64,000 bases of DNA, from NCBI RefSeq assembly GCF_009909105.1, contig NZ_JAAAPK010000002.1, forward strand, positions 349,827-413,826, read 5' to 3'. The notes beneath the pieces were generated by a model that saw only the letters and a program-made list of their open reading frames with translations, did no database searches and was not told the DNA's origin. Made by a program: the position numbers and the translations under genes. Of the stretch, positions 5,526 to 33,139 are shown piece by piece. Within the stretch, counting starts at the first letter, position 1. Every line of letters starts with the position of its first letter. This stretch comes from Corallococcus exiguus (GTDB lineage Bacteria > Myxococcota > Myxococcia > Myxococcales > Myxococcaceae).

Positions 5526-5616
5526 GGTGTTCGCCTTGCTCCGGAATTGGTGTTCGGCTTGTCCCGGAGCCGGTGTTCGGCTTGCTCCGGAATCGGTGAT
5601 CGGGATCGTCCGGAGC
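5526..5616. repeat. Intergenic tandem repeat, 4 units of ~22-24 bp (GGTGTTCGGCTTGCTCCGGAAT-like)
   Basis: Seen directly: ggtgttcgccttgctccggaat / tggtgttcggcttgtcccggagcc / ggtgttcggcttgctccggaat / cggtgatcgggatcgtccggagc. Confidence 0.5.
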
Positions 5617-5823
5617 ACGCATCCACCCTGAAGGGATGACGTTGAACCCAGAGGTGTCGCGGGCGCGTGACAGGTGGGCAGAGCCAGGGCGCTTCCTGGG
5701 GCAGGGAGAATTTCATGCGAGGGTGGCCCGGATGCGCGTTAGCCTGGAGTTCGCTTTACCAGCCACATCCCGCGCAACCATCGTTGAGATCCCTGCGCCT
5801 GCTCGGCGCGGAGAGGGAGAACC

Positions 5824-6888
5824 ATGCAGCGCTTTGTCCTCTTGGGTCTTGCACTGCTCACGGCCTGTGCAACGCCTGTCCATCAGGCCGCATCGCCTGT
5901 CCAGCCCAGCCCGGTCTACGTGTTCGAAGGCGTGGAGGTGTTCGGCTCACGCAAGGTGCCCAAGGGCAAGCTGCTGGAGGTCATTGGGATGCCTGCGCCC
6001 GGCGCGCGCTTCAACCTCGAGAAGGGGGAGTTCACGCCGTACCTCATGGAGAGCAAGCCGCGGCTCCTGGCGGCCTACAAGTTCGCGTTCTGCAGGTACT
6101 CGATGGTGGCCTACCCGCCGACGCGGACGTTCCGGGTGACGGTGGATCTGGTCGATGCCGGAGATGAGTGGCGCATGCCCTTTTCACCCGCGCCGCAGGG
6201 CGATATCCCGGAGCCGGAGGGCCTCCTCACGGCCTGGGATGAATACCAGACGGCCTACTGGAAGCTGAGCAGGGAAGGGGCTGTCCCCGAGTACGGCAAG
6301 AGCAAGTGCCATGCCCTCAACTGCCATGGAGGATTCGACCACCCCGAGCTCGCGCCGCTGGAGCAGCGCTTCATGGATGGTGTTCCCCGCAATCTCGACA
6401 CGCTGGTGCGGGTGCTGCGTGAGGATCGCAACGACTCCAAGCGAATGGCCACGGTCATGCTCCTGCCCTACATCAACTCACGCGAGCAACTGGTGAAGCT
6501 CGTTCTCCCGTCGGTGCGCGACCCCTACGAGGGTGTGCGCAACGAGGCGCTGCGCCTGCTGGGAACGATGCAGGAGGGACAGCCGCGGGTCATCATCCCG
6601 CTGGAGCCCGTGCTCGAAGCGCTCTGGTACCCGCTCGAGACCGACCGCAACAAGGCAGCCTGGGCGCTCGTGCACATCGTGGAAACCGAAGGCGCCGCCC
6701 AACAGCGGCAGATTCTCGACAAGGCGGGCGCGGTGCTGGTGGAGATGGCTGGAATGCAGCAGAAGACCGATGCCGAGCCTGCTCGCAAGGTGCTCGCCAT
6801 CCTGGCGGGGCGGGACCTGGGTGACGAGCCGGCGGCCTGGCACCGTTGGGTCGAGCAGACGCTCGGCTCGAACAGTGCCCATCGGTGA
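5824..6888 (+). CDS. Lipoprotein with HEAT/ARM-like C-terminal repeats
   Basis: Signal peptide + lipobox (LLGLALLTACATP). C-terminal half is helical-repeat-like. GGAGA RBS-like sequence upstream. Confidence 0.5.
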   Translation: MQRFVLLGLALLTACATPVHQAASPVQPSPVYVFEGVEVFGSRKVPKGKLLEVIGMPAPGARFNLEKGEFTPYLMESKPRLLAAYKFAFCRYSMVAYPPTRTFRVTVDLVDAGDEWRMPFSPAPQGDIPEPEGLLTAWDEYQTAYWKLSREGAVPEYGKSKCHALNCHGGFDHPELAPLEQRFMDGVPRNLDTLVRVLREDRNDSKRMATVMLLPYINSREQLVKLVLPSVRDPYEGVRNEALRLLGTMQEGQPRVIIPLEPVLEALWYPLETDRNKAAWALVHIVETEGAAQQRQILDKAGAVLVEMAGMQQKTDAEPARKVLAILAGRDLGDEPAAWHRWVEQTLGSNSAHR

Positions 6889-6939: not shown

Positions 6940-7008
6940 TGGCGGTAGGGCACGGGAATCGAACTCGCCAGGGACTGCTCTCGCAGCCCCTCACCGGTTT
7001 TGAAGCCC
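6940..7008 (-). repeat. Partial duplicate of the 3' half of tRNA-Sec (att-like direct repeat, island boundary)
   Basis: 57 nt (6940..6996) are identical to the 3' end of the intact tRNA at 11867..11923 (tggcggtagggcacgggaatcgaactcgccagggactgctctcgcagcccctca). Similarity decays over the next ~12 nt. This copy lacks the 5' acceptor strand. Confidence 0.65.
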
Positions 7009-7153
7009 CGCCACCCCGATCCGCGAGGTGCCCGGGGGGATTGAGGGTCGGCCGGTTTCCCTCTGGCGCGGGGTGGACCGCGAGTCCGTAAAGGTCCACC
7101 CGCGTCCGTTCATCTTGGGTACAGCTTGGGTACGCGGGTAGGGACGGCAGGGG

Positions 7154-7762
7154 TCAGGGGGCATTGGCTGCACCGGGGCCGGTCACGTCCGTGAACTTCG
7201 TGCCGGTGATGACCGCGCGCTCCAGGGCCTCCTTGATCTCCTCGGACACGATCAAGGCCACGGTCCAGCCCCAGGTGCGGAACACCTTGGCGCCTTCCAC
7301 CTTCGCCGGGTCGATGCGCATCCCGGACACGGAGGAGTACGTACCCACCTTTTCGGGCATCCCGTCCTCCGGGGTCCAGTAACGCACCTCCTCGCACGCT
7401 GCATCGTCGATGCACTTCACCAGCCGGGTGGCGTTGAGGATGAAGTGCTGAGCGGGCTGGGAGTCGATCTCCACCGGGATGAGCTGCACGTCGTCGGGTG
7501 CCAGCTCGGTGAAGAAGGAGGCCACCCGGGCGTGGACGACGGGGATGCTGAATGCCGCGTGGGAATAGTCGAGCGGTTTGCCGGAGATCTTGATGGGGAT
7601 CCTGATGCGCTCGTCCGAGTGAGCCCGCTGCCCGATCCTGAACTGCCACGGGTCATCGAGCTTGCGCCCTTCCTGATCGAGAGGATGCCCCAGCTCCCAC
7701 CGGCCGGAGAGGTACACATCATCGCTCAACTTGAAGAACCGCGTCGGCATGAAGTCGTCCAT
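7154..7762 (-). CDS. Putative polymorphic-toxin immunity protein (second, possibly orphan; resembles DUF1629/Imm11-like proteins)
   Basis: 202-aa protein immediately downstream of the toxin and the first immunity gene in the same orientation. Family assignment is from memory and uncertain. Confidence 0.4.
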   Translation of the reverse strand: MDDFMPTRFFKLSDDVYLSGRWELGHPLDQEGRKLDDPWQFRIGQRAHSDERIRIPIKISGKPLDYSHAAFSIPVVHARVASFFTELAPDDVQLIPVEIDSQPAQHFILNATRLVKCIDDAACEEVRYWTPEDGMPEKVGTYSSVSGMRIDPAKVEGAKVFRTWGWTVALIVSEEIKEALERAVITGTKFTDVTGPGAANAP

Positions 7763-7772
7763 CCGAGGCGGG

Positions 7773-8126
7773 CTACTCTGGATCGAGCGCCCAGGTTCCT
7801 TCTTCCCAGCGCTTCAATGCCTGCCCGGCTTCAAAGGGAACGAGCCCCTTGCCCTTGGCGGCTTCCTCCAGAACCGCCTTCGCTTCGGCCGTCCGGTAGC
7901 GGAGCAGATGGGCGGCGGCCATGACACGCACATCCATGCGCTCATGCTTGAGCAGGACGAGGAGGGCATCACGTCCTGCGTTTCCATGGGCCAGGAGCGT
8001 ATCGACGGCGGCACCGTACTTCCTGGCGTGCTTGTTCCCGGTCTTGGCATCTCCCCGGAAGATGGCCTCGGTCTGTGCCGCCACGTTCAGGGCGAACTGC
8101 TCGACCAATCTCTCCAACGTCATCAC
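7773..8126 (-). CDS. DUF2019-like small helical immunity protein
   Basis: 117 aa. The MTLERLVEQFALNVAAQTEAIFRGDAKTGNKHARKY...VRVMAAAHLL...AEAKAVLEEAAKG...FEAGQALKRWEEGTW pattern matches the DUF2019 family as I recall it. Its start overlaps the toxin stop by 4 nt (ATGA). Confidence 0.5.
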   Translation of the reverse strand: MMTLERLVEQFALNVAAQTEAIFRGDAKTGNKHARKYGAAVDTLLAHGNAGRDALLVLLKHERMDVRVMAAAHLLRYRTAEAKAVLEEAAKGKGLVPFEAGQALKRWEEGTWALDPE

Positions 8127-9532
8127 CAGACCCCCTTCGCCACGTTCTCCATGGCCAGCAGCCCGAAGTCACGCTGGGCCTCGTAGGACTGCGTGCTCAA
8201 CCATTGCCTCACGGTCAAGGTGCTGGAGCCCGTGATACTACGCCGGATCGACGAGTAGAGCGCGCTGACGTCGGTGTGCAGGATCTTGTCCAGTGGGATG
8301 AGGTTCTCGGTGTTGTGGAGGGCCTGGGGGCCGAAGCGCTTCACGTTGCCCGGGGTTTGCTCGACGATGTGGTGCCACTCCTTGTTCTTGCCCGCCGGGC
8401 CCATGGCCTTCTTGAAACCACTGAACGAGCTCCAGGCCCTGTAGCCCAAGGGACGCGCCTTGGCGGAGGCGCTGCCGCCCGTGGCTTTGGCCGCCATGGC
8501 CACCGCGCCGGGCGCGAGGGCGATGGTGACGGTCTCGGCGCTCACGGCCACCGTTCCCACGTCCGCGACCGCCGCGAGCCTGATGCCCATTTGCGCTTCA
8601 GCCTGGACCGCCGCCTGCGCGGCGCCTGGGAGCATTGGCACCTTCGACCCCAGCCCCGCCGCCGTGTTCCCAATGGCGGCCGTGGCCAACATGGCGAACG
8701 CGCGCGCCGCGTTGCGGCCCATGACCTTGCCGTAGCGCTCACCCGCCTCGCGGAGTTCGTCAAACGTGGTGGCCCGCTCCGCCTCCTCCACCAGCTGCTT
8801 GAAGCCCAAGATGAGGCTCCAGAACGTATCGACCCCGACGTAGGCAATGAGGGAGGCGGTCATCACGGCGGCCACGCCCTTCGAGAAAGGCTCGGGCACC
8901 GCGAGCAAGATGCAGTACGTGGTCCACGTCCAAAGAACCGCAGCCATCATGGCCTGGGGATCAGCCATCTCTTTGAAGGCGTCCATCATCTCGTCCCGCA
9001 CGACGCCTTGGGCCAAGGCCATGGCCAGGGCGTAACGGCCATCCCCGGTGACAGTAGGGCTCTCCACCAGGAGGCGCAGGCAATCGCCGGGATTGCTCGT
9101 TCGCTCGCACCAGCGCAGGTATGCGCGCGTCAGATCCACCTCTGTCGAGGGGAGATCACCGTCCAGGTGTTCGCCCGGTCCCAGCGGGATGACACGGTGG
9201 CTGCGCGGCTCGTACAGGTATGAACCGCTGCGCGGATCCATCTCGAAAAACCGCCGGGCCGTTTCCTGGGGATGAGTGGACGGACGTACGTTCCGGGCGA
9301 GCGCTTCTACGGCTTCAACGAAGTCGTCTTCGTCCAGCGCCACCGGGGCGGTATCGCCGCTGCGTGGGGTAAGGACGATGGACTCGCCGTGGCCCGTGTG
9401 CAGGCGCACGGACTTCGTGGTGCCGCTGCATCCAGCCAGCATCACGAGCAGTAGGAGAATTGACCATCGTGGCAGCATGCGGAGCCCTCCTGGCGCGGGC
9501 CCCCTTCGCTCGGGAGCGTATCGGCGGCGCAA
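8123..9532 (-). CDS. SitA-like lipoprotein polymorphic toxin with C-terminal WHH/HNH-fold nuclease domain
   Basis: N-terminal signal peptide + lipobox (LLLLVMLAGCSG), a central Ala-rich region, and a C-terminus reading KEWHHIVEQ...HNTENLIPL...H. This is characteristic of the Tox-WHH (HNH superfamily) nuclease. The probable true start is the internal Met (MLPRW, ~9478). Confidence 0.55.
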   Translation of the reverse strand: MRRRYAPERRGPAPGGLRMLPRWSILLLLVMLAGCSGTTKSVRLHTGHGESIVLTPRSGDTAPVALDEDDFVEAVEALARNVRPSTHPQETARRFFEMDPRSGSYLYEPRSHRVIPLGPGEHLDGDLPSTEVDLTRAYLRWCERTSNPGDCLRLLVESPTVTGDGRYALAMALAQGVVRDEMMDAFKEMADPQAMMAAVLWTWTTYCILLAVPEPFSKGVAAVMTASLIAYVGVDTFWSLILGFKQLVEEAERATTFDELREAGERYGKVMGRNAARAFAMLATAAIGNTAAGLGSKVPMLPGAAQAAVQAEAQMGIRLAAVADVGTVAVSAETVTIALAPGAVAMAAKATGGSASAKARPLGYRAWSSFSGFKKAMGPAGKNKEWHHIVEQTPGNVKRFGPQALHNTENLIPLDKILHTDVSALYSSIRRSITGSSTLTVRQWLSTQSYEAQRDFGLLAMENVAKGVW

Positions 9533-9593
9533 GGCCTAGTAATACCAGATAGAGCTGACAGATGCTCCGGGCTGACGCCGTCTGTGGTGGAGC

Positions 9594-9989
9594 GTGTGCG
9601 GCCGACGGCGTGCCTTCTGGAACGTCACGCCGAGAGAGAGCGTGCGCTGTCAGCCCGGTCACCACAGCTTGAGCGTGAAAGGCCCCACCGAGCACCGGAC
9701 GGTTACCTTCGTCTCCGACGCGCGCCTGCCCTTGGACAACAACCGCTCCGAGGCAGCGCTGCGCAAAGCGGCGCTGGGCCGGAAGAACTTCCTCTTCGTC
9801 GGCCATGAGGCCGCGGGCGAAAACCTCGCTGGCCTCTACGCCCTCGTCGCCACCTGCGAAGCCAACGGCGTCAATCCCGAGGCCTACCTCGCCGACATGC
9901 TGCTGCGCGTCCAGACGCACCCGCTTGCGCGCGTCGGCGAGCCGCTGCCGCACGAATGGGAGCGGCTTCGCGCCGCCGACGCTTCCTGA
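9594..9989 (+). pseudogene. IS66-family transposase C-terminal fragment (remnant)
   Basis: DNNRSEAALRKAALGRKNFLFVGHEAAGENLAGLYALVATCEANGVNPEAYLADMLLRV matches the conserved C-terminus of IS66 TnpC. Only ~130 aa of a ~500-aa protein are present. Confidence 0.6.
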
Positions 9990-10183
9990 CGCCACCTCAC
10001 CACGGCATTTCTCCCCGCTGGGACTCGCGGCGCCCGCCGAGCACGGCCAGGGCCTGCCTTCAAGCTCGCCAACACGTCATTGGCCGGACAGTTACGATGG
10101 ATATAACATTTAGCTTGTTCTGGGGCCCCTCTCTGCGGTGGCCCGAACAGCGAGGGGACCAAGGGGCCGGTCTTGCCGAAGTG

Positions 10184-11782
10184 CTATTCACCAACAGGGG
10201 TGTCGATTGGTGGAACACCTTCCTTCTGTTGGGGGACCTGTGCAGAGGCGTTTGCCGGCTGTGCGGCAAGGTGAGTTGGAGTCAAGGAAGGGCTTGCATG
10301 AAGCATAGCTCTTAAGTCGTTTTCGATTTCAGAGAGTATTTTGAGATGAAATATGGCGAACTGGTCGGGATTGAGTCCTTGAGGAGAGGCTGCGCCCGAG
10401 AGTCTCTTGAAGACGTCCGCATGCTTCCTTCGTTTGACCGCTACTTTGTTGCCCTTTCCATGATCGACGTCGTGTCTGATTTCTGTGCGAAGCGTGTTTA
10501 CATCTATGAAGGAAGAAGGTGGCGACTCGCCGAGTCGCTCCCCAGGGCCTTCCCACAAAAGAAAGTAAAGGTTGTCGATCAGCTTTTCATATTCTGCGAC
10601 GTCCGAAATCAAAACTCCAAGGCTTCTCTGTGCCTTCAGGGTTTTGTTTGTTGGCTTGAAGAGGTCTTTGCCGGTGGCGGATTGAGATTTTGTGTTTATC
10701 TGCTCAATCAGTTCTGCGATTTGTTCTGCCTTGGCGAGGACGTCGGCCTTAGGAGTCGTTTTGGCGATGGCTGTGGCGCCAAAAGCACTGGCCAGTTCAG
10801 GGTTTTTGGTGAGGAGCTTTTTGGTGAGGATGCGCTGTCGGGCCTCTGGGCCGGATTTGATATTGGCGTTGATTGTCTTCTGGAATTCGAGGTAGTCGCG
10901 ATCGGTGGCCTTGACCCCTAGTTCTACTTGCTTGGAAAGCTCTTCTGTGAAGGCTTCGGCGAAGCTGGAGAACACCGTCTCGTGTCCAACGGCCTTTCCT
11001 GCTGAGACGAGCGTTGCCGCAAGGGTGAAGATTGATTGAACTATGGTCCGGTTGTGTAGTGCTGGGGAAGGGGCGGGAAAGGATTTGTCGAGAAAGGCTA
11101 GTGTTGATGTGATTCTTTTGGCGACCGCTGATTTTCTTGAGAATGTCGAGTTGTTTTCGAATATCAGCTTGAGGTCGTCAAAGCGAAGGCCTGTTGTGAT
11201 CCCCTTGATTTCGATTGCGCAGGCCTTGGCGGCAATGTCGAGATGTGAGTGGCGGTAGTCCTCGACTTGGCATTTTGACTTGAAAAAACTGTGCTTTGAT
11301 ACGTCGAGTGCGAAGTCGCGCAATTCGCTGTGAATGGCGTTTAGTCTCTCGCTGCTCGTGAGCGGAAGTCCGAGTTGGAGTCTTTGAAAGAACTCCTTGA
11401 GGTCTGATTCAATGGCCCCGGTGATTACGTCGTACTCGATCTCGAAGTCATCGAATTTGTCTGCTATCGCAGTTGGGAGTTCTTTGTAGAGTTTCCCTCC
11501 CATTTGAGTGGGAGAGTCCATAGGGATCTCAAGCTCATTTCCAAAGAAGCGCCAGATGGCCTGAAGGCGCTGCTGCCCGTCGACCACTTCGTACTGGTCG
11601 CTGTCGTTGGACTTCTTGACAAAGTAGAATTTTGGCAGCTTCCATCCGCGTAGGATGCTGTCGATAAGATTCTGCTGAAGCTTTTTGTCCCAGACTTTCC
11701 CGCGTTGCCAATCTGGAATCTCATAGCGACCGCGCCGTGCATAAATCTTGTCGAGAGACCTCTTCTCTGATCTCATTTCCAT
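10184..11782 (-). CDS. DUF262 (ParB/Srx-like nuclease domain, GmrSD N-terminal-like) protein; candidate anti-phage defence gene
   Basis: N-terminal IPDWQRGKVWDKK...VVDGQQRLQAI motif (the DGQQR signature of DUF262). The gene is conspicuously AT-rich relative to its flanks. No DUF1524 H..H motif is obvious in the C-terminal ~350 aa. Confidence 0.6.
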   Translation of the reverse strand: MEMRSEKRSLDKIYARRGRYEIPDWQRGKVWDKKLQQNLIDSILRGWKLPKFYFVKKSNDSDQYEVVDGQQRLQAIWRFFGNELEIPMDSPTQMGGKLYKELPTAIADKFDDFEIEYDVITGAIESDLKEFFQRLQLGLPLTSSERLNAIHSELRDFALDVSKHSFFKSKCQVEDYRHSHLDIAAKACAIEIKGITTGLRFDDLKLIFENNSTFSRKSAVAKRITSTLAFLDKSFPAPSPALHNRTIVQSIFTLAATLVSAGKAVGHETVFSSFAEAFTEELSKQVELGVKATDRDYLEFQKTINANIKSGPEARQRILTKKLLTKNPELASAFGATAIAKTTPKADVLAKAEQIAELIEQINTKSQSATGKDLFKPTNKTLKAQRSLGVLISDVAEYEKLIDNLYFLLWEGPGERLGESPPSSFIDVNTLRTEIRHDVDHGKGNKVAVKRRKHADVFKRLSGAASPQGLNPDQFAIFHLKILSEIENDLRAMLHASPSLTPTHLAAQPANASAQVPQQKEGVPPIDTPVGE

Positions 11783-11866
11783 GCTCGTGACCTCCTAAAA
11801 ACGCTGTTGTGAGTAGAGCGTCCCGCAACCCGTTCAGGGCCGCGTCAGAAAAACCCAAGGAAAACA

Positions 11867-11965
11867 TGGCGGTAGGGCACGGGAATCGAACTCGCCAGGG
11901 ACTGCTCTCGCAGCCCCTCATTGGTTTTGAAGACCAAGCCGGCCACCAGGTCCGGAGGCCCTACC
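11867..11965 (-). tRNA. selC: tRNA-Sec (anticodon UCA), ~99 nt
   Basis: Minus-strand sequence GGTAGGGC...TTGGT-CTTCAAA-ACCAA...GGCGAGTTCGATTCCCGT-GCCCTACC-G-CCA. Shows an 8-bp acceptor stem, a 7-nt anticodon loop with U33 and UCA at 34-36, a long variable arm, a TTCGATT T-loop, discriminator G, and an encoded CCA. D-arm and T-stem pairing were not fully verified by hand. Confidence 0.6.
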
Positions 11966-12007
11966 GCTTCCGATTACCGCCGCTCCGCCCCAGTCCGTCA
12001 ACCGCCG

Positions 12008-12976
12008 TCACGTCTTGCGCGCGGACACCACGGCGTACTCGTCGCAGTTGAACAGCGCGGGCCACTGGAGTTGCTCCGGTGTCATCCGCATCGCCTTGTG
12101 CACGTCCGCGCGCACCTGGTGCAGGGACGTGCTCCCCGGCTGCCTCTCCAGCTGCGTCATGCCCCGCAGCGCCACCAGCGCCGTGTTCACCGCCGGGTAC
12201 ACATCCTCCGCGATGGACTCCACCTTCGCGTCCTGGAACCCCGCCCGCCGCAGCTCCTCCCGGTATCGCTCCGTCGACCAGACGTTCTCCTCCGGGAAGG
12301 CAATCAGTCCCCGCCAGTAGCGGTAGCGCAGCCGCGCTCGGAGTCCTGCTCCAGCCTCACGGTCCGTCTTCTGCGCCATGTCCGCCATCACCAGCCGGCC
12401 TCCCGGCTTCAGCACCCGGAAGGCCTCGCGCAGGAAGTCCTGCCGCATCCGGAAGTGCATCGCGGACTCCAGCGCGAACACCACGTCGAACGCTCCCTCC
12501 GGCCCCGGCAGCGCCGTCGCGCTCCCCACCTCCAGCCGGACCACGCCCTCCAGCCCCGTCAGCTTCACGCGCTCCCGGCCCACCTTCACCTGGTTCGGCG
12601 TGATGTTCACCCCGACGATGCTCGCGGGCTTGAACTCCTCCGCCCACAGCAGGTCCTGGTCCGCGTACCCGAAGCCGCAGTCCAAGACGGCATCCCCAGG
12701 CCCCAGCTTCGCCGTCCTCGCCAACAGGCGCGCCATCTCCGCCTGGGCGGACCGGAACAGCTCACCCACGCGCTCCACGTTGGTGTCGTCCACCTTCTCC
12801 ACGTGCTTCCAGTAGCCCAGGTTGATCCAGAAGGGCTCCCGGCCCGTCGTCACCCGGATGTCGCTCGGCGCGGGCATCCCCGCCACCCAGGCTCCCGTCT
12901 CGTTCGTATAGAAGCGCTCCGGGTCCGCCAGAAACGCACTCTTCAGCCGCGTCGCGACCTGCCTCACGTTGACCAT
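12008..12976 (-). CDS. Class I SAM-dependent methyltransferase
   Basis: The VLDCGFGYADQD (motif I) and VKPGGRLVMAD motifs are present. Start chosen at MVNVRQ (the ORF table extends to 13033). Confidence 0.6.
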   Translation of the reverse strand: MVNVRQVATRLKSAFLADPERFYTNETGAWVAGMPAPSDIRVTTGREPFWINLGYWKHVEKVDDTNVERVGELFRSAQAEMARLLARTAKLGPGDAVLDCGFGYADQDLLWAEEFKPASIVGVNITPNQVKVGRERVKLTGLEGVVRLEVGSATALPGPEGAFDVVFALESAMHFRMRQDFLREAFRVLKPGGRLVMADMAQKTDREAGAGLRARLRYRYWRGLIAFPEENVWSTERYREELRRAGFQDAKVESIAEDVYPAVNTALVALRGMTQLERQPGSTSLHQVRADVHKAMRMTPEQLQWPALFNCDEYAVVSARKT

Positions 12977-13154
12977 CGCCAGCCTCCTGGGCCTTCCATC
13001 CGACGGCCGGAACCCTAGTCCGTGTCTCGGCAATTCCAGGCCTGGCCTGCATGACGGTTTTCACTGGTGAATGAAGCGGGGCCGCTCGTCCGGTGTCCCA
13101 GGGGACGCCTTGCCCGGCGCGTCATCCGAGCTTCATGATGAGCGCTCTTCCGCC

Positions 13155-25086: not shown

Positions 25087-28000
25087 ATGACTGACACGAC
25101 TGAACTGTCCAAGGCCTACGAGCCCTCCGAAGTGGAGGCGCGGTGGTACAACCACTGGCTGGAGCGCGACTACTTCCGCGCCGAAGCCCCTTCCTCCAAG
25201 CCGCCGTTCAGCATCGTGCTGCCGCCGCCCAACGTGACGGGCAGCCTGCACATCGGCCACGCGCTCACCGCGACCATCCAGGACATCCTCACGCGCTGGA
25301 AGCGGATGAGCGGCTTCAACGCGCTCTGGCTGCCGGGCACGGACCACGCGGGCATCGCCACGCAGATGGTGGTGGAGAAGGAGCTCAAGAAGACGGAGGG
25401 CAAGAGCCGCCACGACCTGGGCCGCGAGGCGTTCCTCGAGCGCGTCTGGACGTGGAAGGGCAAGTTCGGCGCGCGCATCGGTGAGCAGCACCGCTACCTG
25501 GGCGCGTCCCTGGACTGGAGCCGCGAGCGGTTCACCATGGACGAGCAGTCCTCGGCCGCGGTGCGCGAGGTGTTCGTCCGGCTGTACGAAGAGGGCCTGA
25601 TGTACCGGGCCCAGAAGCTGATCAACTGGTGCCCGTCCTGCCGCACGGCCCTCTCCGACCTGGAAGTGGAGCACGAGGAGAAGAACGGCTCGCTCTGGCA
25701 TATCCGCTACCCGGTGAAGGGCACGGAGCGCTTCCTCACCGTGGCGACGACGCGCCCGGAGACGCTGCTGGGCGACACGGCCGTCGCCGTGCACCCGGAG
25801 GATCCGCGCTACCAGGACCTCATCGGCAAGAGCGTGGCGCTGCCGCTCACCGACCGTGAGATTCCGGTCATCGCGGACGGCGAGCTGGTGAACATGGAGT
25901 TCGGCACCGGCGTGGTGAAGGTCACGCCCGCGCACGACTTCAACGACTACCAGACGGGCCTGCGCCACAAGCTGCCGATGCTGTCCATCCTGGACGAAGC
26001 GGCGCGGATGACGAAGGACACCGGCAAGTACGCGGGCCTGGAGAGCCGGGAGGCGCGCAAGCAGGTGCTGGCGGACCTGACGGAGCTGGGCCTGCTGGAG
26101 AAGGAGGAGCCGCACAAGCTGAACGTGGGCACCTGCCAGCGCTGCACCACGGTGGTGGAGCCGCGCCTGTCGCCGCAGTGGTTCATCAAGATCGAACCGC
26201 TGGCGAAGCCGGCCATCCAGGCCGTGGAGGAGGGCCGCACGAAGTTCGTCCCCGAGTCGTGGACGAACACGTACTTCCACTGGATGAACAACATCCACGA
26301 CTGGTGCGTGAGCCGCCAGCTGTGGTGGGGCCACCAGATTCCCGCGTGGTACTGCGCGGCGTGCACCCCGGCGGAAGAGCGCTCGAAGGACACGGCGGAC
26401 GTCATCGTGTCTCGCACGGCGCCGGAGTCCTGCCCGAAGTGCGGCGGCAAGGAGCTGACGCAGGATCCGGACGTGCTGGACACCTGGTTCTCGTCCGCGC
26501 TGTGGCCGTTCTCCACGCTGGGCTGGCCGAAGCAGACGGCGGACCTCCAGACCTTCTACCCGACGTCCGTGATGGAGACGGGCCACGACATCATCTTCTT
26601 CTGGGTCGCCCGGATGATGATGATGGGCCTGCACTTCATGAACGATGTGCCCTTCCGCACCGTGTACCTGCACGCGATGGTGCGCGACGAGAAGGGCGAG
26701 AAGATGTCCAAGACGAAGGGGAACGTCATCGATCCCTTGGACGTCATCCTCGGCGCGAAGGCGGAGTCGCTGCAGCCGTCCTTGCGCAACCGCTTCCCGC
26801 AGGGCATGCCCGCGCACGGCGCGGACGCGCTGCGCTTCACGCTGGCGTCGCTCACGCAGCAGGGCCGTGACATCAAGCTGTCGATGGACCGCCTGGGTGG
26901 CTACAAGGCGTTCTGCAACAAGCTGTGGAACGCCAGCCGCTTCGCCCTGATGAACATGGGCGACTTCAGCCTGGACAAGACGCCGCTGGAGGGCCGCAAG
27001 CTGACGCTGGCGGACCGGTGGATCCTCTCCCGCCTGCAGAAGGCCACCGAGGAGACGCGCGCGTCGCTGGAGGCGTTCGGCTTCGCGGAGGCCGCGTCCA
27101 CGCTGTACCAGTTCCTGTGGGCGGAGTTCTGCGACTGGTACATCGAGCTGGCGAAGGGCTCGTTGTACGGCGACGACGCGGAGGCCAAGGACACCACGCG
27201 CGCGGTGCTGGTGACGTGCCTGGACCGCATCCTGCGGCTGATGCACCCGTTCATGCCGTTCATCACCGAGGAGATCTGGCAGAAGCTGCCGATGTCCCGG
27301 CCCACGGAGAGCATCTGCATCGCGGCGTACCCGGCGCCGGAGACGGCGTGGGTGGACGCGGCCGCGGAAGGCGAGATGGCGCCGGTCATCGCGGCCATCG
27401 AGGGCCTGCGCACGCTGCGCGGCGAGAGCAACCTGCCGCCGTCCGCCAAGGTGAAGGCGGTGGTGCAGAGCCCGGACGCGACGACGCGCGAGCTGTTGGA
27501 GCGTTGGCGCGCGTACCTGATGCCGCTCGCGGGCCTGTCCGAGGTGGTGGTGGGCCCCCCGGGCGCCAAGCCTCCGCAGGCGGCGGCGTTCGTGAGCGGC
27601 AACCTGGAAATCTACGTGCCCCTGGCGGGCCTGGTGGACCTGGACGCGGAGCGCGACCGCCTGAAGAAGGAGATCGTCCGCTCCGAGCAGGAACTCACCG
27701 GTTTGCAGCGCAAGCTGGACAACCCGAACTTCGTGGCCCGTGCTCCGCCGGACGTGGTGGAGAAGGACAAGGCCCGGGTGGCGGAGCTCCAGGAGCGCAC
27801 GGTCAAGCTGCAGGATCACCTCCAGCGCATCGCCCCGGAGCCCCCCATGTCCGAGACGCCGTCGCCGTTGCCGGGCAGCACCGAGTCCGAAGCCCCTGAA
27901 GCGTCCGAGTCCCCCGCGCCCGAGAGCGCCCATGTGAAGGTGGCCACCGAGCCGCAGGCACCGAAGGACGATGCGGTGAACCTGGGCCAGGAGCTGAAGG

Positions 28001-28584
28001 GCGAGATTGAAGCCGAAGAGGCTTCGCAGGCGCCCCAGGCCGCGGATCCGGTGGTGGAGGAGGCCCTCAACAAGCTGCGCGAGGGCACCAAGGAAGGACT
28101 GTCCCCGGCGGACCACCACGACCTGGGCGTCGCGTACATGAGCATGGGCCTCGTGGACGACGCGATGCGCGAGTTCGACCGGGCCAAGGAGGGCGGCGAC
28201 GCCCGCGAGGCGCCGGAGGGTTCGGCGAAGCCGGTGAAGAAGGCCCCTGCGAAGAAGGCCTCCTCGAAGAAGGCGGCGGTGAAGAAGGCCCCTGCGAAGA
28301 AGGCCGCGGCGGTGAAGAAGGCCCCTGCGAAGAAGGCCTCCGCGAAGAAGGCGGCGAGCAAGAAGTCCGCCGCGAAGAAGGCCCCTGCGAAGAAGGCTTC
28401 CGCGAAGAAGGCAGCGGGCAAGAAGACGGCCGCGAAGAAGGCGGCGGTGAAGAAGGCTCCTGCGAAGAAGGCTTCGGCGAAGAAGGCTTCGGCGAAGAAG
28501 GCGGCGGGGAAGAAGACCGCCGCGAAGAAGGCCGCGGCGAAGAAGACCACTCGGGGCAAGCCGGCTCGCAAGGCGCGCCGGTAG
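25087..28584 (+). CDS. valS: Valine--tRNA ligase with ~280-aa C-terminal extension (acidic linker + histone H1-like AKKA repeats)
   Basis: HIGH ([13 protein letters not shown]) and KMSKS ([13 protein letters not shown]) motifs, editing domain, and a C-terminal coiled coil (up to ...LQDHLQRIA at ~aa 885). An E/P/S-rich segment, one TPR-like helix pair, and a [17 protein letters not shown] repeat tail follow. Confidence 0.9.
28234..28584 (+). repeat. Tandem DNA repeats encoding the Lys/Ala (AKKA) tail of valS
   Basis: Repeated gcgaagaaggcc(c/t)ctgcgaagaaggc units seen directly. Confidence 0.55.
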
Positions 28585-30862: not shown

Positions 30863-33139
30863 ATGCCGTCCGCCCCCAGCACCGAAGCCATCCAGCGCAT
30901 CTCCCTGAAGAACCGCGAGTACGCATACATCGAGGACGCCAACCGCGGCGTCGTGCTGATGGAGGTGGGCCCGCGCGTGCTGACGCTCGAAGCGCACCTG
31001 ACGCTCGTGGCGAAGGAGCGGATGGTGGAGCTGGGCGCCGGCAGCTGGTGCGTGGTGCGCAACCCCGTGGTGCGTGTGGACGGCCAGGTGGCGCTGGACG
31101 ACTTCGGCCAGGCCCGCGTCGCGGTGGGCGACCGCGAGGTCCGCGTGGGCCCGAAGGTGTTCCCGCTGTACCCCGGCGAGGAGCTGGAGGGCGACATCGT
31201 CCCGGAATACGTCCTGGGCGTGTCGGAGGCGCTGCGTCTGCGCGCGCTCACCGCCTTCACGGACACCCACGTCCCGGACGCTCCCCGCCGCCGTGAAGCG
31301 GGTGACGAGTGGCTGGTGCGCGGCCCCGGCCGCTACGTGCCCGGCGAGTCCGTCACCGTCGTGTCGCTGGAGAAGGCCCGCGTCCTCAAGGAGACCGAGT
31401 ACTGCGTCATCCTCAATCCCGTGGACCGCGCCACCGGCCGCGTCCAGGAGGGCCGCCGCAAGGTCGTCTCCGGTCCGGATGTCTTCTTCCTCGAACCCGG
31501 CGAGGCGCTGGAAGGGGACGTGCGCCGCAAGCATGTCCTGTCGGAGCTGCAGGGCCTGAAGCTCCAGGCCCTGGACGACCTCTCCGAGAACGAGGGTGGC
31601 GAACCGCGCGCACGCAAGGCCGGTGACACGTGGATCGTCCGCGGCCCTCGCACCTACGTGCCCAGCGAGAAGGTCCTCATCCACCGGGAGATTGCCGCGC
31701 TGTCATTGGGGCAGGGGGAAGGCCTGTACGTGCGCGACCTGCGCTCGGGCAAGGTGTCGCTCGTCCAAGGGCCTTGCCAGTTCATGCCGGAGGCACACCA
31801 GGAACTGCACGAGAAGCGCCTGTCCCCGGACGCGGAGGCCCTGCTGGGCCTCACTCCGCCGCTGCCGCTCGCGGAGGCGAAGGACGCCCGCGCGCCACGG
31901 CCCACAAGCGCGACGGAGAAGGGGGACCGCACTCGCGCCATCGTGCTGCGCATCGAGGACAACACGGCGGTCCTCATCAACGACTTCGAGTCCAATCACG
32001 CGCGCGTGGAGTTCGGCCCCGCGAAGGTGATGTTGCGTCCGTACGAGGACGTCACCGTCCTGGATTTGTCCGGCAGCACGCCCAAGCGCCCGCGTCAGCT
32101 CAAGGTGCTGATGCTGCGGCTGGGGCCGGACTTCGCCACGGACCTCTTCGAGGTGGCCACTCGCGACCACGCGCGGCTGCGCATCAAGCTTTCGTACAAA
32201 TGGCAGTTCGACGTGCAGGGGGACCCGGAGAAGGACAAGGCCATCTTCCGGGTGAACGACTTCATCGGGTACGTGTGTGAGAACCTCGCGTCGCGCATCC
32301 GCCAGGTCGCCGCGGAGAACGAGTTCGAGACCTTCCACAAGAACGCCAGCGTGCTCATCCGCCGCACCATCTTCGGCATGGATGACGCGGGCCGCGCTCG
32401 CAAGGACCGCCTCTTCTCCGAGAACCAGCTGCGCATCATCGACATCGACATCAAGGACATCGCCCCCGTCGATGAGAAGACGGCCCTGAAGCTGCGCGAG
32501 GCCATCGACACCAACATCCAGATCCAGCTGGACGCCTCACGCCAGGAGGCCCAGGCCGCCGCGGAGCTCAAGCGCATCCGCAGCGAGGAGGAGAAGCAGC
32601 TCGCGGACATCGCCAGCCACCGCAAGTCGGAGGCGGAGCGCCAATCCCTCATCGAATTGCAGAACCGCAACCACCAGCTGGAGACGCTCAGCCGCGCCAA
32701 GGTGGAGGCGGAGGCCCAGCTGGAGCGCGCCCGCGTGGAGAGCGAAGAGGCCCTGGCCCGCGCCGAGTCCGACGCCCGCGCCTCGCGCATCCGCTCCGAA
32801 GCGGAGATCGAGCGCGAACGGCTCACCACCCAGGTGGCCCTGGATCGCCAGCAGCGCCTCAATGACCTGGAGGTGGAGCGCCAGTCGCGCCTCGCGGAAG
32901 TGGAAGCCGGCCAATTCCGTCAGCGCGTGGAGTCCCTGGGGGGAGGGGAGAACTTCGTGAAGGCCGTGGCCGCGCAGGCCCAGGCCGCCGTCGTCGGAGG
33001 CCTGGACAAGGTCGTCTTCCTCCCCAGCGGCTCCAACCTCAACCTCTTCGACGCCATGCAGGGACTCCTGGGGCCCGGCGGACAACCCCGCCTGTCCGCC
33101 CACAACGCCCCGAAGCCGCCCGGCGACACTTCGGCCTGA
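30863..33139 (+). CDS. Major vault protein (MVP) homologue: vault repeats + shoulder (SPFH-like) domain + cap-helix coiled coil
   Basis: Block-by-block similarity to eukaryotic MVP as recalled from memory: FPLYPGEELEGDIVP vs PLYPGEVLEKDITP; AGDEWLVRGPGRYVP vs AGDEWLFEGPGTYIP; EYCVILNPVD...FFLEPGEALEGDV...VLSELQGLKLQALD vs HNYCVILDPVG...FFLQPGEQLEQGI...VLSEQQGLLLRALQ. Also RVEFGPAKVMLRPYEDVTVLDLSGSTPKRP...LGPDFATDL...DHARLRIKLSYKWQFDV vs [30 protein letters not shown]...LGPDFFTDV...DHARLQLQLAYNWHFEV. A long Ala/Glu/Arg-rich coiled coil is followed by NLNLFDAMQGLLGPGGQP. It is about 135 aa shorter than human MVP, with fewer N-terminal repeats. Confidence 0.8.
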   Translation: MPSAPSTEAIQRISLKNREYAYIEDANRGVVLMEVGPRVLTLEAHLTLVAKERMVELGAGSWCVVRNPVVRVDGQVALDDFGQARVAVGDREVRVGPKVFPLYPGEELEGDIVPEYVLGVSEALRLRALTAFTDTHVPDAPRRREAGDEWLVRGPGRYVPGESVTVVSLEKARVLKETEYCVILNPVDRATGRVQEGRRKVVSGPDVFFLEPGEALEGDVRRKHVLSELQGLKLQALDDLSENEGGEPRARKAGDTWIVRGPRTYVPSEKVLIHREIAALSLGQGEGLYVRDLRSGKVSLVQGPCQFMPEAHQELHEKRLSPDAEALLGLTPPLPLAEAKDARAPRPTSATEKGDRTRAIVLRIEDNTAVLINDFESNHARVEFGPAKVMLRPYEDVTVLDLSGSTPKRPRQLKVLMLRLGPDFATDLFEVATRDHARLRIKLSYKWQFDVQGDPEKDKAIFRVNDFIGYVCENLASRIRQVAAENEFETFHKNASVLIRRTIFGMDDAGRARKDRLFSENQLRIIDIDIKDIAPVDEKTALKLREAIDTNIQIQLDASRQEAQAAAELKRIRSEEEKQLADIASHRKSEAERQSLIELQNRNHQLETLSRAKVEAEAQLERARVESEEALARAESDARASRIRSEAEIERERLTTQVALDRQQRLNDLEVERQSRLAEVEAGQFRQRVESLGGGENFVKAVAAQAQAAVVGGLDKVVFLPSGSNLNLFDAMQGLLGPGGQPRLSAHNAPKPPGDTSA

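Follow-up and report, generated by a model that had tools for sequence, protein, structure and literature searches.

We analyzed three consecutive genes on the minus strand of a 64,000-nucleotide stretch of the Corallococcus exiguus genome (contig NZ_JAAAPK010000002.1, positions 349,827 to 413,826; the whole stretch is hereafter called the window, and all coordinates refer to it), which together would constitute a sitAI5 toxin-immunity cassette of a Corallococcus-like myxobacterium. The genes are sitA5 (8123..9478, stop codon included), which encodes a predicted lipoprotein toxin precursor of 451 amino acids; sitI (7773..8126), which encodes a putative cognate immunity protein of 116 or 117 amino acids; and imm11 (7154..7762), which encodes a second predicted immunity protein of 198 to 202 amino acids. 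Our analysis makes it very probable that a toxin tip and its immunity gene have been swapped into this SitA5 cassette, leaving the old immunity gene, imm11, stranded downstream.

Mosaic structure of the cassette

The most informative comparison is with a locus of Corallococcus caeni (L083) that lies at the same chromosomal site: the flank formed by a methyltransferase gene and a tRNA-Sec gene is 91% identical (window 13120..11867), and tRNA-Sec also stands upstream of sitA5 in two further loci (L081 and L082). The window and C. caeni toxins are 83% identical over their first ~370 aligned residues, which comprise the escort domain and the linker; their tips are then unrelated, so that one escort domain carries an AHH tip (PF14412) in C. 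caeni and a different tip here, as expected of a modular polymorphic tip. At the nucleotide level, blastn homology between the two loci covers window positions 9506..8490 (92%), ends there, and resumes at 7765, directly past the sitI stop codon, to continue through imm11 and a tRNA-Sec repeat to 6939 (93%). Segment-wise best matches follow the same division. The escort domain is closest to L083 (92.7%); the linker (96.4%), the tip (93.7%) and sitI (93.4%) are closest to a Corallococcus sicarius locus (L001); and imm11 (94.3%) and the DNA downstream of it (90.7%) are again closest to L083 or L084. This switch from L083 to L001 and back led us to conclude that tip and immunity gene were exchanged together and that imm11 is a displaced orphan. 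The exchanged cassette (7766..8490, minus strand; 724 nucleotides) occupies the place of the 367-nucleotide AHH tip of C. caeni, and its left crossover lies inside a conserved Ala/Val-rich pre-toxin linker (8491..8656, minus strand; …GIRLAAVADVGTVAVSAETVTIALAPGAVAMAA…). The C. caeni site also contains a second islet, bounded by another tRNA-Sec repeat, that holds a fragment of the 3' end of the window tip and a DUF2019 gene (86% identical), and we therefore consider that such cassettes circulate at the tRNA-Sec site.

A survey of loci carrying the window's tip type, based on one genome per species, returned 201 tip matches; the 80 best loci, all from Myxococcaceae or Archangiaceae, were compared. 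The imm11 product is a clear match to Pfam Imm11 (PF07791; E 2.9e-12, 46.8 bits, gathering score 22.1), and none of the 80 loci has an imm11 gene adjoining this type of tip. The only imm11 among them (L070) overlaps the stop codon of a different SitA5-like protein, one with an AHH tip (E 1.4e-18). The closest relatives of the window protein (92-93% identical; C. caeni and Myxococcus spp.) are encoded 15 nucleotides after AHH-tipped proteins of 451-458 amino acids, and imm11 is paired with AHH tips in L070, L081, L082 and L083. Since these relatives stand behind SitA5 toxins with AHH tips, at the tRNA-Sec locus shared with the window, imm11 is, by this comparison, a displaced orphan predicted to confer immunity to a sibling AHH-tipped toxin, which agrees with the original prediction that the second gene might be an orphan of this kind. 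Published Imm11 partners comprise Tox-AHH, Tox-HNH and Tox-SHH (PMC3482391), and strain DK1622 holds eight ahh-imm11 SitAI5 loci (PMC12077181). Like the AHH-Imm11 pairs of Myxococcus xanthus, which include the type VI secretion pair MXAN_0050/0049 and the SitAI5 ahh-imm11 loci, the window has a bona fide Imm11 gene, whose orthologs come after SitA5 toxins with AHH tips at this tRNA-Sec site; it differs in that the AHH tip is gone, so that imm11 has no cognate toxin in its operon.

The simplest history would run from an AHH tip to the present one, with imm11 left behind, because a swap in the reverse direction would not explain the presence of imm11 without an AHH toxin. An ancestral sitA5 with an AHH tip, followed by imm11, would have sat at the tRNA-Sec-linked site; crossovers in the Ala/Val-rich linker and just past the incoming sitI stop codon would then have put the present tip and sitI in place of the AHH tip. 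The old imm11 would have stayed downstream, intact, where it probably still protects against the AHH-tipped SitA5 toxins of relatives. This scheme resembles tip replacement in contact-dependent inhibition (CDI; cdiA-CT/cdiI) and Rhs systems, in which a tip and its immunity gene are replaced together by recombination at a conserved pre-toxin sequence, and earlier immunity genes persist downstream. Unlike in those systems, the window retains only the old immunity gene, without a displaced toxin fragment, and has an Ala/Val-rich linker as its conserved junction in place of a VENN or PxxxxDPxGL motif.

SitA5 identity and gene models

The three genes correspond to minus-strand open reading frames (ORFs) at 8123..9532 (469 amino acids, TTG start), 7773..8126 (117 amino acids) and 7154..7762 (202 amino acids), as the original prediction had described them, including the strings KEWHHIVEQ and HNTEN and a later His in the first product. 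The window has a G+C content of 67%, and chance long ORFs occur in all frames (65 ORFs are listed in 7.5 kb). We nevertheless regard sitA5, sitI and imm11 as real genes on sequence grounds, because each has a strong family match (SitA5_escort, DUF2019 and Imm11, respectively). The ORF proposed for the toxin was correct, but its start was not: the TTG at 9532 lies far upstream, and translation almost certainly begins at the ATG at 9478, since this is where orthologous genes are called (451 amino acids in L083) and homology to relatives at the DNA level sets in shortly before it. For imm11, the start may be the fifth codon, a Met at 7750, as its relatives have 198 amino acids. The toxin gene ends in TGG TGA TGA and overlaps sitI, which starts either at GTG 8126 (four-nucleotide GTGA overlap) or at ATG 8123 (one-nucleotide overlap, TGATG) and is preceded by a Shine-Dalgarno-like run, AAGGGGG. 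A stop/start overlap had thus been correctly noted, although not as the ATGA given for it.

The toxin begins with a type II signal peptide (9428..9478, minus strand), MLPRWSILLLLVMLAGC followed by SGTTKS, with an L-A-G-C lipobox, Cys17 as position +1, and Ser at +2 and +7. In M. xanthus, lipoproteins sorted to the outer membrane lack Lys at +2 and Ala at +7 (PMC5562445), and neither residue occurs at these positions in the window protein, consistent with the localization originally proposed. An L-[AT]-[GA]-C box is kept at the equivalent position in nearly all full-length relatives. The escort domain (8657..9454, minus strand; residues 27-292 of the 469-amino-acid ORF) matches the NCBIfam SitA5_escort model (NF050093) over its entire length (positions 1-262 of 262; E 1.7e-116, 388.3 bits, cutoff 160). 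The original assignment as a SitA lipoprotein toxin can consequently be narrowed to SitA5. Families of SitA are defined by their N-terminal escort domain, SitA5 being one of six, and their tips are modular (PMC8546572). The window protein has the lipobox, the full escort domain, a variable tip and a coupled downstream gene, and it is thus classified, from its sequence, as a SitA5 outer-membrane-exchange lipoprotein, an ordinary member of a known kin-discrimination family.

Tested SitA5 alleles include one with an HNH (PF13391) tip and one with an AHH tip (PMC8546572), namely SitA5^Mf1 and SitA5^Mf2 of Myxococcus fulvus. The window allele shares with the family the lipobox, the full-length escort domain, the modular C-terminal tip, a downstream immunity gene, a location on mobile DNA and a distribution restricted to Myxococcaceae and Archangiaceae. 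It differs in being known from sequence, whereas the published alleles were examined experimentally. The escort match spans 262 model positions, whereas escort domains have been described as roughly 375 amino acids long. Two long hydrophobic stretches, AVLWTWTTYCILLAVPEP… and VAAVMTASLIAYVGVDTFWSLILGF, lie at about residues 180-230 of the 451-amino-acid toxin (window 8750..8940, minus strand), within the escort domain. They resemble membrane-spanning helices, an uncommon feature in an outer-membrane lipoprotein, and may have a bearing on how the inner membrane is crossed.

By analogy with the tested SitA5 alleles, the toxin would be passed to neighbours bearing a matching TraA receptor during outer membrane exchange. 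The escort domain would then carry the C-terminal tip across the recipient envelope by an ExbB1-dependent route; entry of SitA5 requires ExbB1 (MXAN_1448) and MXAN_0057 (PMC8546572). No other sit-like gene turned up in a search of the window, and PADLOC gave no defence-system match for the three cassette genes.

The toxin tip and its DUF2019-like partner

The C-terminal tip (8126..8476, minus strand; ~110 amino acids) belongs, by alignment, to a large, well conserved, HNH-like family that has no curated model. An alignment of the window tip with 37 relatives (38 sequences) revealed conserved residues at W368-H369-H370, E373-Q374, H388-N389-T390-x-N392 and H401 (451-residue numbering), followed by a YSS…TVRxWLSTQS block. 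Across the family, the invariant or nearly invariant positions read W-H-H-[IV]-V-E-Q, R-F-G, H-N-T-x-N and H, then Y-S-S and T-V-R-x-W-L-S-T-Q-S…Q…F-G. All 108 close homologs of the tip are unannotated, and an exhaustive profile search retrieved 2,239 cluster representatives, of which 522 reach E<=1e-30. In every case the domain forms the extreme C-terminus of its carrier. Carriers range from 100 to 2,411 amino acids, the long ones being Rhs/YD toxins and an EAD2 protein, at whose tips Pfam matches nothing.

The original prediction had named the tip a Tox-WHH nuclease, an identity that we rejected. The Tox-WHH profile (PF14414) matched neither the window tip at E<=10 nor any of the 38 aligned sequences at E<=1. 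Tox-WHH domains have the signature "WHH, L, H, HxG" and the partners Imm-SUKH, Imm28 or Imm37 (Zhang et al. 2012, PMC3482391); here, the last conserved His has no HxG after it, the family consensus being H-x-x-[IV]-S-x-x-Y-S-S, and the immunity partner is a different one. A literal W-H-H does not identify the domain, since P-W-H-H is also present in the AHH-family tips of L081 and L083. What the window tip shares with Tox-WHH, which is carried by M. xanthus SitA1, is this W-H-H, in the strand predicted to come first in a probable HNH-type core, and a C-terminal place on polymorphic toxins, Rhs proteins included; it differs in having no Pfam match, no HxG, a DUF2019 partner and an additional conserved C-terminal helical block. 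A divergent AHH domain was likewise rejected: both families read W-H-H-I, but hhalign gave a probability of 2% between a 21-sequence tip alignment and a 30-sequence AHH alignment. The latter was collected with an approximate seed from the L083 tip; its matches are real PF14412 proteins, and the true tips of L083, L081 and L070 are included.

An HNH-fold signature, which profile searches had been expected to reveal, was found in weak form, and an HNH fold is plausible. The sole recurrent Pfam match is HNH_2 (PF13391), detected in 14 of the 38 tips with a best E of 0.0045 and always below the gathering score; its alignment spans the catalytic core (profile positions 14-56 of 66), and the H-H … N … H spacing is that of HNH_2 and of phage and restriction HNH endonucleases. 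In an AlphaFold2 (AF2) model built on the family alignment, with a predicted local distance difference test (pLDDT) score of 90.9, the H-H pair falls on strand 37-41, the Asn run precedes strand 64-68 and the last His belongs to helix 69-79, which makes a beta-beta-alpha unit. In Foldseek searches against PDB and BFVD, HNH nucleases recur among weak matches, none with a significant score, the best of these neighbours being T5 SciA, GVE2 HNH, Cas8-HNH and Gme HNH. Sequence searches of PDB returned nothing useful with either the single tip or the tip profile. The tip is probably an HNH-type nuclease, the activity that the model and the profile matches favour; a metal-dependent beta-beta-alpha enzyme acting through H369/H370, N389/N392 and H401 would damage nucleic acid, and this damage would be confined to cells without the immunity protein.

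The gene that follows the tip encodes a predicted helical protein matching Pfam DUF2019 (PF09450) over profile positions 3-93 of 105, with 26.8 bits against a gathering score of 23.3, and HEAT_2 with 22 bits; the DUF2019 margin is narrow, and relatives score 17.8-25.7 bits. A DUF2019-like homolog, 58-95% identical to the SitI protein, starts 0-18 nucleotides past the tip in 80/80 loci. The tip also occurs in two non-SitA contexts (L085 and L086), where it is likewise followed by a small gene of the sitI kind: in L086 the DUF2019 match of the partner covers positions 2-102 of 105, and the L085 partner is 33% identical to the window SitI protein (BLASTP E 3e-8) and matches HEAT_2. Because it adjoins the tip in every one of the 80 loci and follows it in both non-SitA contexts, the DUF2019-like gene is predicted to be the cognate immunity gene, translationally coupled to sitA5, and the role originally suggested for it is upheld. 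Its product would remain in the producer and neutralize the tip. A literature search on DUF2019/PF09450 returned no paper giving it an immunity role; the published catalogue of SitA toxin domains lay outside that search.

We lean, with modest confidence, towards regarding the tip and its DUF2019/HEAT-like partner as a widespread polymorphic toxin-immunity pair that is undescribed in curated databases or searchable papers and is common to SitA5 lipoproteins, Rhs/YD toxins, EAD2 proteins and small secreted proteins. If this is true, the pair would give DUF2019 its first function, immunity, and would define a new HNH-like toxin clade.

Two further patterns were observed among the surveyed loci. 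In seven of them (L007, L012, L015, L023, L028, L030 and L039), the toxin is followed by a homogeneous poly-immunity array of two or three tandem DUF2019 paralogs, whose identity to the SitI protein is 58-92%. Truncated, frameshifted or internally deleted sitA5 copies with the tip were found in L015, L019, L021, L024, L034, L038 and L065 and among proteins P0026, P0039 and P0107; P0026 is the start of an escort domain fused straight to the tip, and P0107 an escort domain fused to the tip's second half. All of the truncated or deleted copies still have a DUF2019 gene next downstream, and together they look like a graveyard of recombined remnants that retain their immunity genes.

The tRNA-Sec islet and alternative readings

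The cassette lies in a 4.9-kb islet bracketed by an intact tRNA-Sec gene (11867..11965, minus strand; ARAGORN, and Rfam RF01852 with 68.9 bits), which is its attachment site, and by a 69-nucleotide direct repeat of the 3' part of that gene, from the anticodon loop to the 3' end, which is its distal boundary (6940..7008, minus strand; 96% identity). The alignment of the repeat loses identity abruptly beyond both ends, and the same repeat stands after imm11 in the C. caeni locus, where two partial tRNA-Sec repeats (positions 5741..5809 and 6599..6667 of L083) point therefore to tandem islets. Four other sitAI5 loci adjoin tRNA genes (L007, L035, L037 and L044), and the islet setting agrees with published reports that sitAI loci are associated with mobile DNA (PMC8546572, PMC5562445). 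Between the attachment site and sitA5 lie a GmrSD_N/DUF262 (NsnA-like) gene encoding 532 amino acids (10184..11782, minus strand; Pfam GmrSD_N E 2.1e-20, PADLOC NsnA E 2.1e-27) and, next to sitA5, a C-terminal fragment of an IS66 transposase (9594..9989, plus strand; Pfam DDE_Tnp_IS66 and IS66_C, NCBIfam transpos_IS66 positions 314-386 of 387). The former lies in a patch of 50-56% GC in a region of ~67% GC, and both are absent from the C. caeni locus. The GmrSD_N gene is not part of the toxin system and is probably a recently acquired defence-type gene. No integrase was found, the family-matched ORFs of 7009-11866 being only imm11, sitI, sitA5, the IS66 fragment and the GmrSD_N gene.

Several other features of the window were recorded. 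Just outside the distal repeat, 5824..6888 (plus strand) encodes a predicted lipoprotein of 354 amino acids with an LLTAC lipobox and HEAT repeats, and in L081 and L082 a HEAT_2 protein stands just after imm11. The intergenic DNA upstream of this lipoprotein gene holds a 23-nucleotide tandem repeat (5526..5616; GGTGTTCGGCTTGCTCCGGAATC, 3.4 copies, 80% matches). Farther away are a bacterial homolog of the eukaryotic major vault protein (30863..33139, plus strand; MVP_shoulder E 9e-45, with Vault, Vault_2, Vault_3 and Vault_4 repeats) and a valyl-tRNA synthetase (25087..28584, plus strand) whose C-terminal extension matches the histone-H1-like HC2 family (residues 1048-1162, E 1.2e-11).

The interpretation of the cassette depends on how its three components are read. 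For the tip, the chief competing explanation is another kind of toxin, either a different enzyme or a membrane-active domain, in which the HNH-like spacing of His and Asn arose by chance. No profile or fold match reaches significance, and about half of the conserved positions lie in the C-terminal helical block (YSS…TVRxWLSTQS…FG), which has no counterpart in known HNH domains; with the recurrent HNH_2 alignments and the modelled beta-beta-alpha unit on the other side, we judge this explanation unlikely, and an HNH-type nuclease is preferred. For imm11, its product could instead be a second, cross-reacting immunity protein to the resident toxin, so that both downstream genes protect. Imm11 proteins are able to bind toxins other than their cognate ones, M. 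xanthus commonly has additional imm11 genes behind toxin genes (PMC12077181), and the window gene is intact, with pairwise ratios of non-synonymous to synonymous substitution rates (dN/dS) of 0.16-0.24, like that of the escort domain (0.24). This is, nonetheless, quite improbable, given that imm11 never adjoins the window's tip type in the 80 loci, that each close relative examined follows an AHH tip, that the AHH family is unrelated to the window tip by profile comparison, and that reported Imm11 crosstalk is limited to AHH toxins.

For the cassette as a whole, it is very improbable that we are observing a decaying remnant on a dead mobile element from which active toxin is no longer made. 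The missing integrase, the IS66 fragment and the many related sitA5 copies that are truncated or deletion fusions would suit such a remnant. Against it, the sitA5 ORF is full length, with its lipobox, a complete escort match and all family-invariant tip residues, and is tightly coupled to an intact sitI. The dN/dS of sitI relative to L001 is 0.07, indicating strong constraint, and that of the tip is 0.34. A functional SitA5 cassette with an exchanged tip and a displaced imm11 therefore remains our preferred reading, and three points weigh against it. No traA or traB match was obtained in a non-exhaustive scan of ten large ORFs of the window, so it is family membership alone that points to the delivery route; the direction of the swap is drawn from parsimony and not from a rooted phylogeny; and pairwise dN/dS is unable to show selection on imm11 since the swap.

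The locus adds one further "self-identity barcode" allele to a well-studied kin-discrimination system, and its existence as such is unsurprising. Its value lies in being a clean natural example, with breakpoints at nucleotide level, of how SitA5 would diversify by exchanging tip plus immunity gene through a conserved linker; by keeping the old immunity gene at the swap, a lineage would widen its protection while its weapon changes. The analysis also exposes a toxin-tip family of more than 2,000 clusters without a curated model, whose members are therefore annotated as "hypothetical protein" in genomes, and it ties Pfam DUF2019 to a role in immunity by way of a gene neighbourhood that is strictly conserved across several delivery systems.

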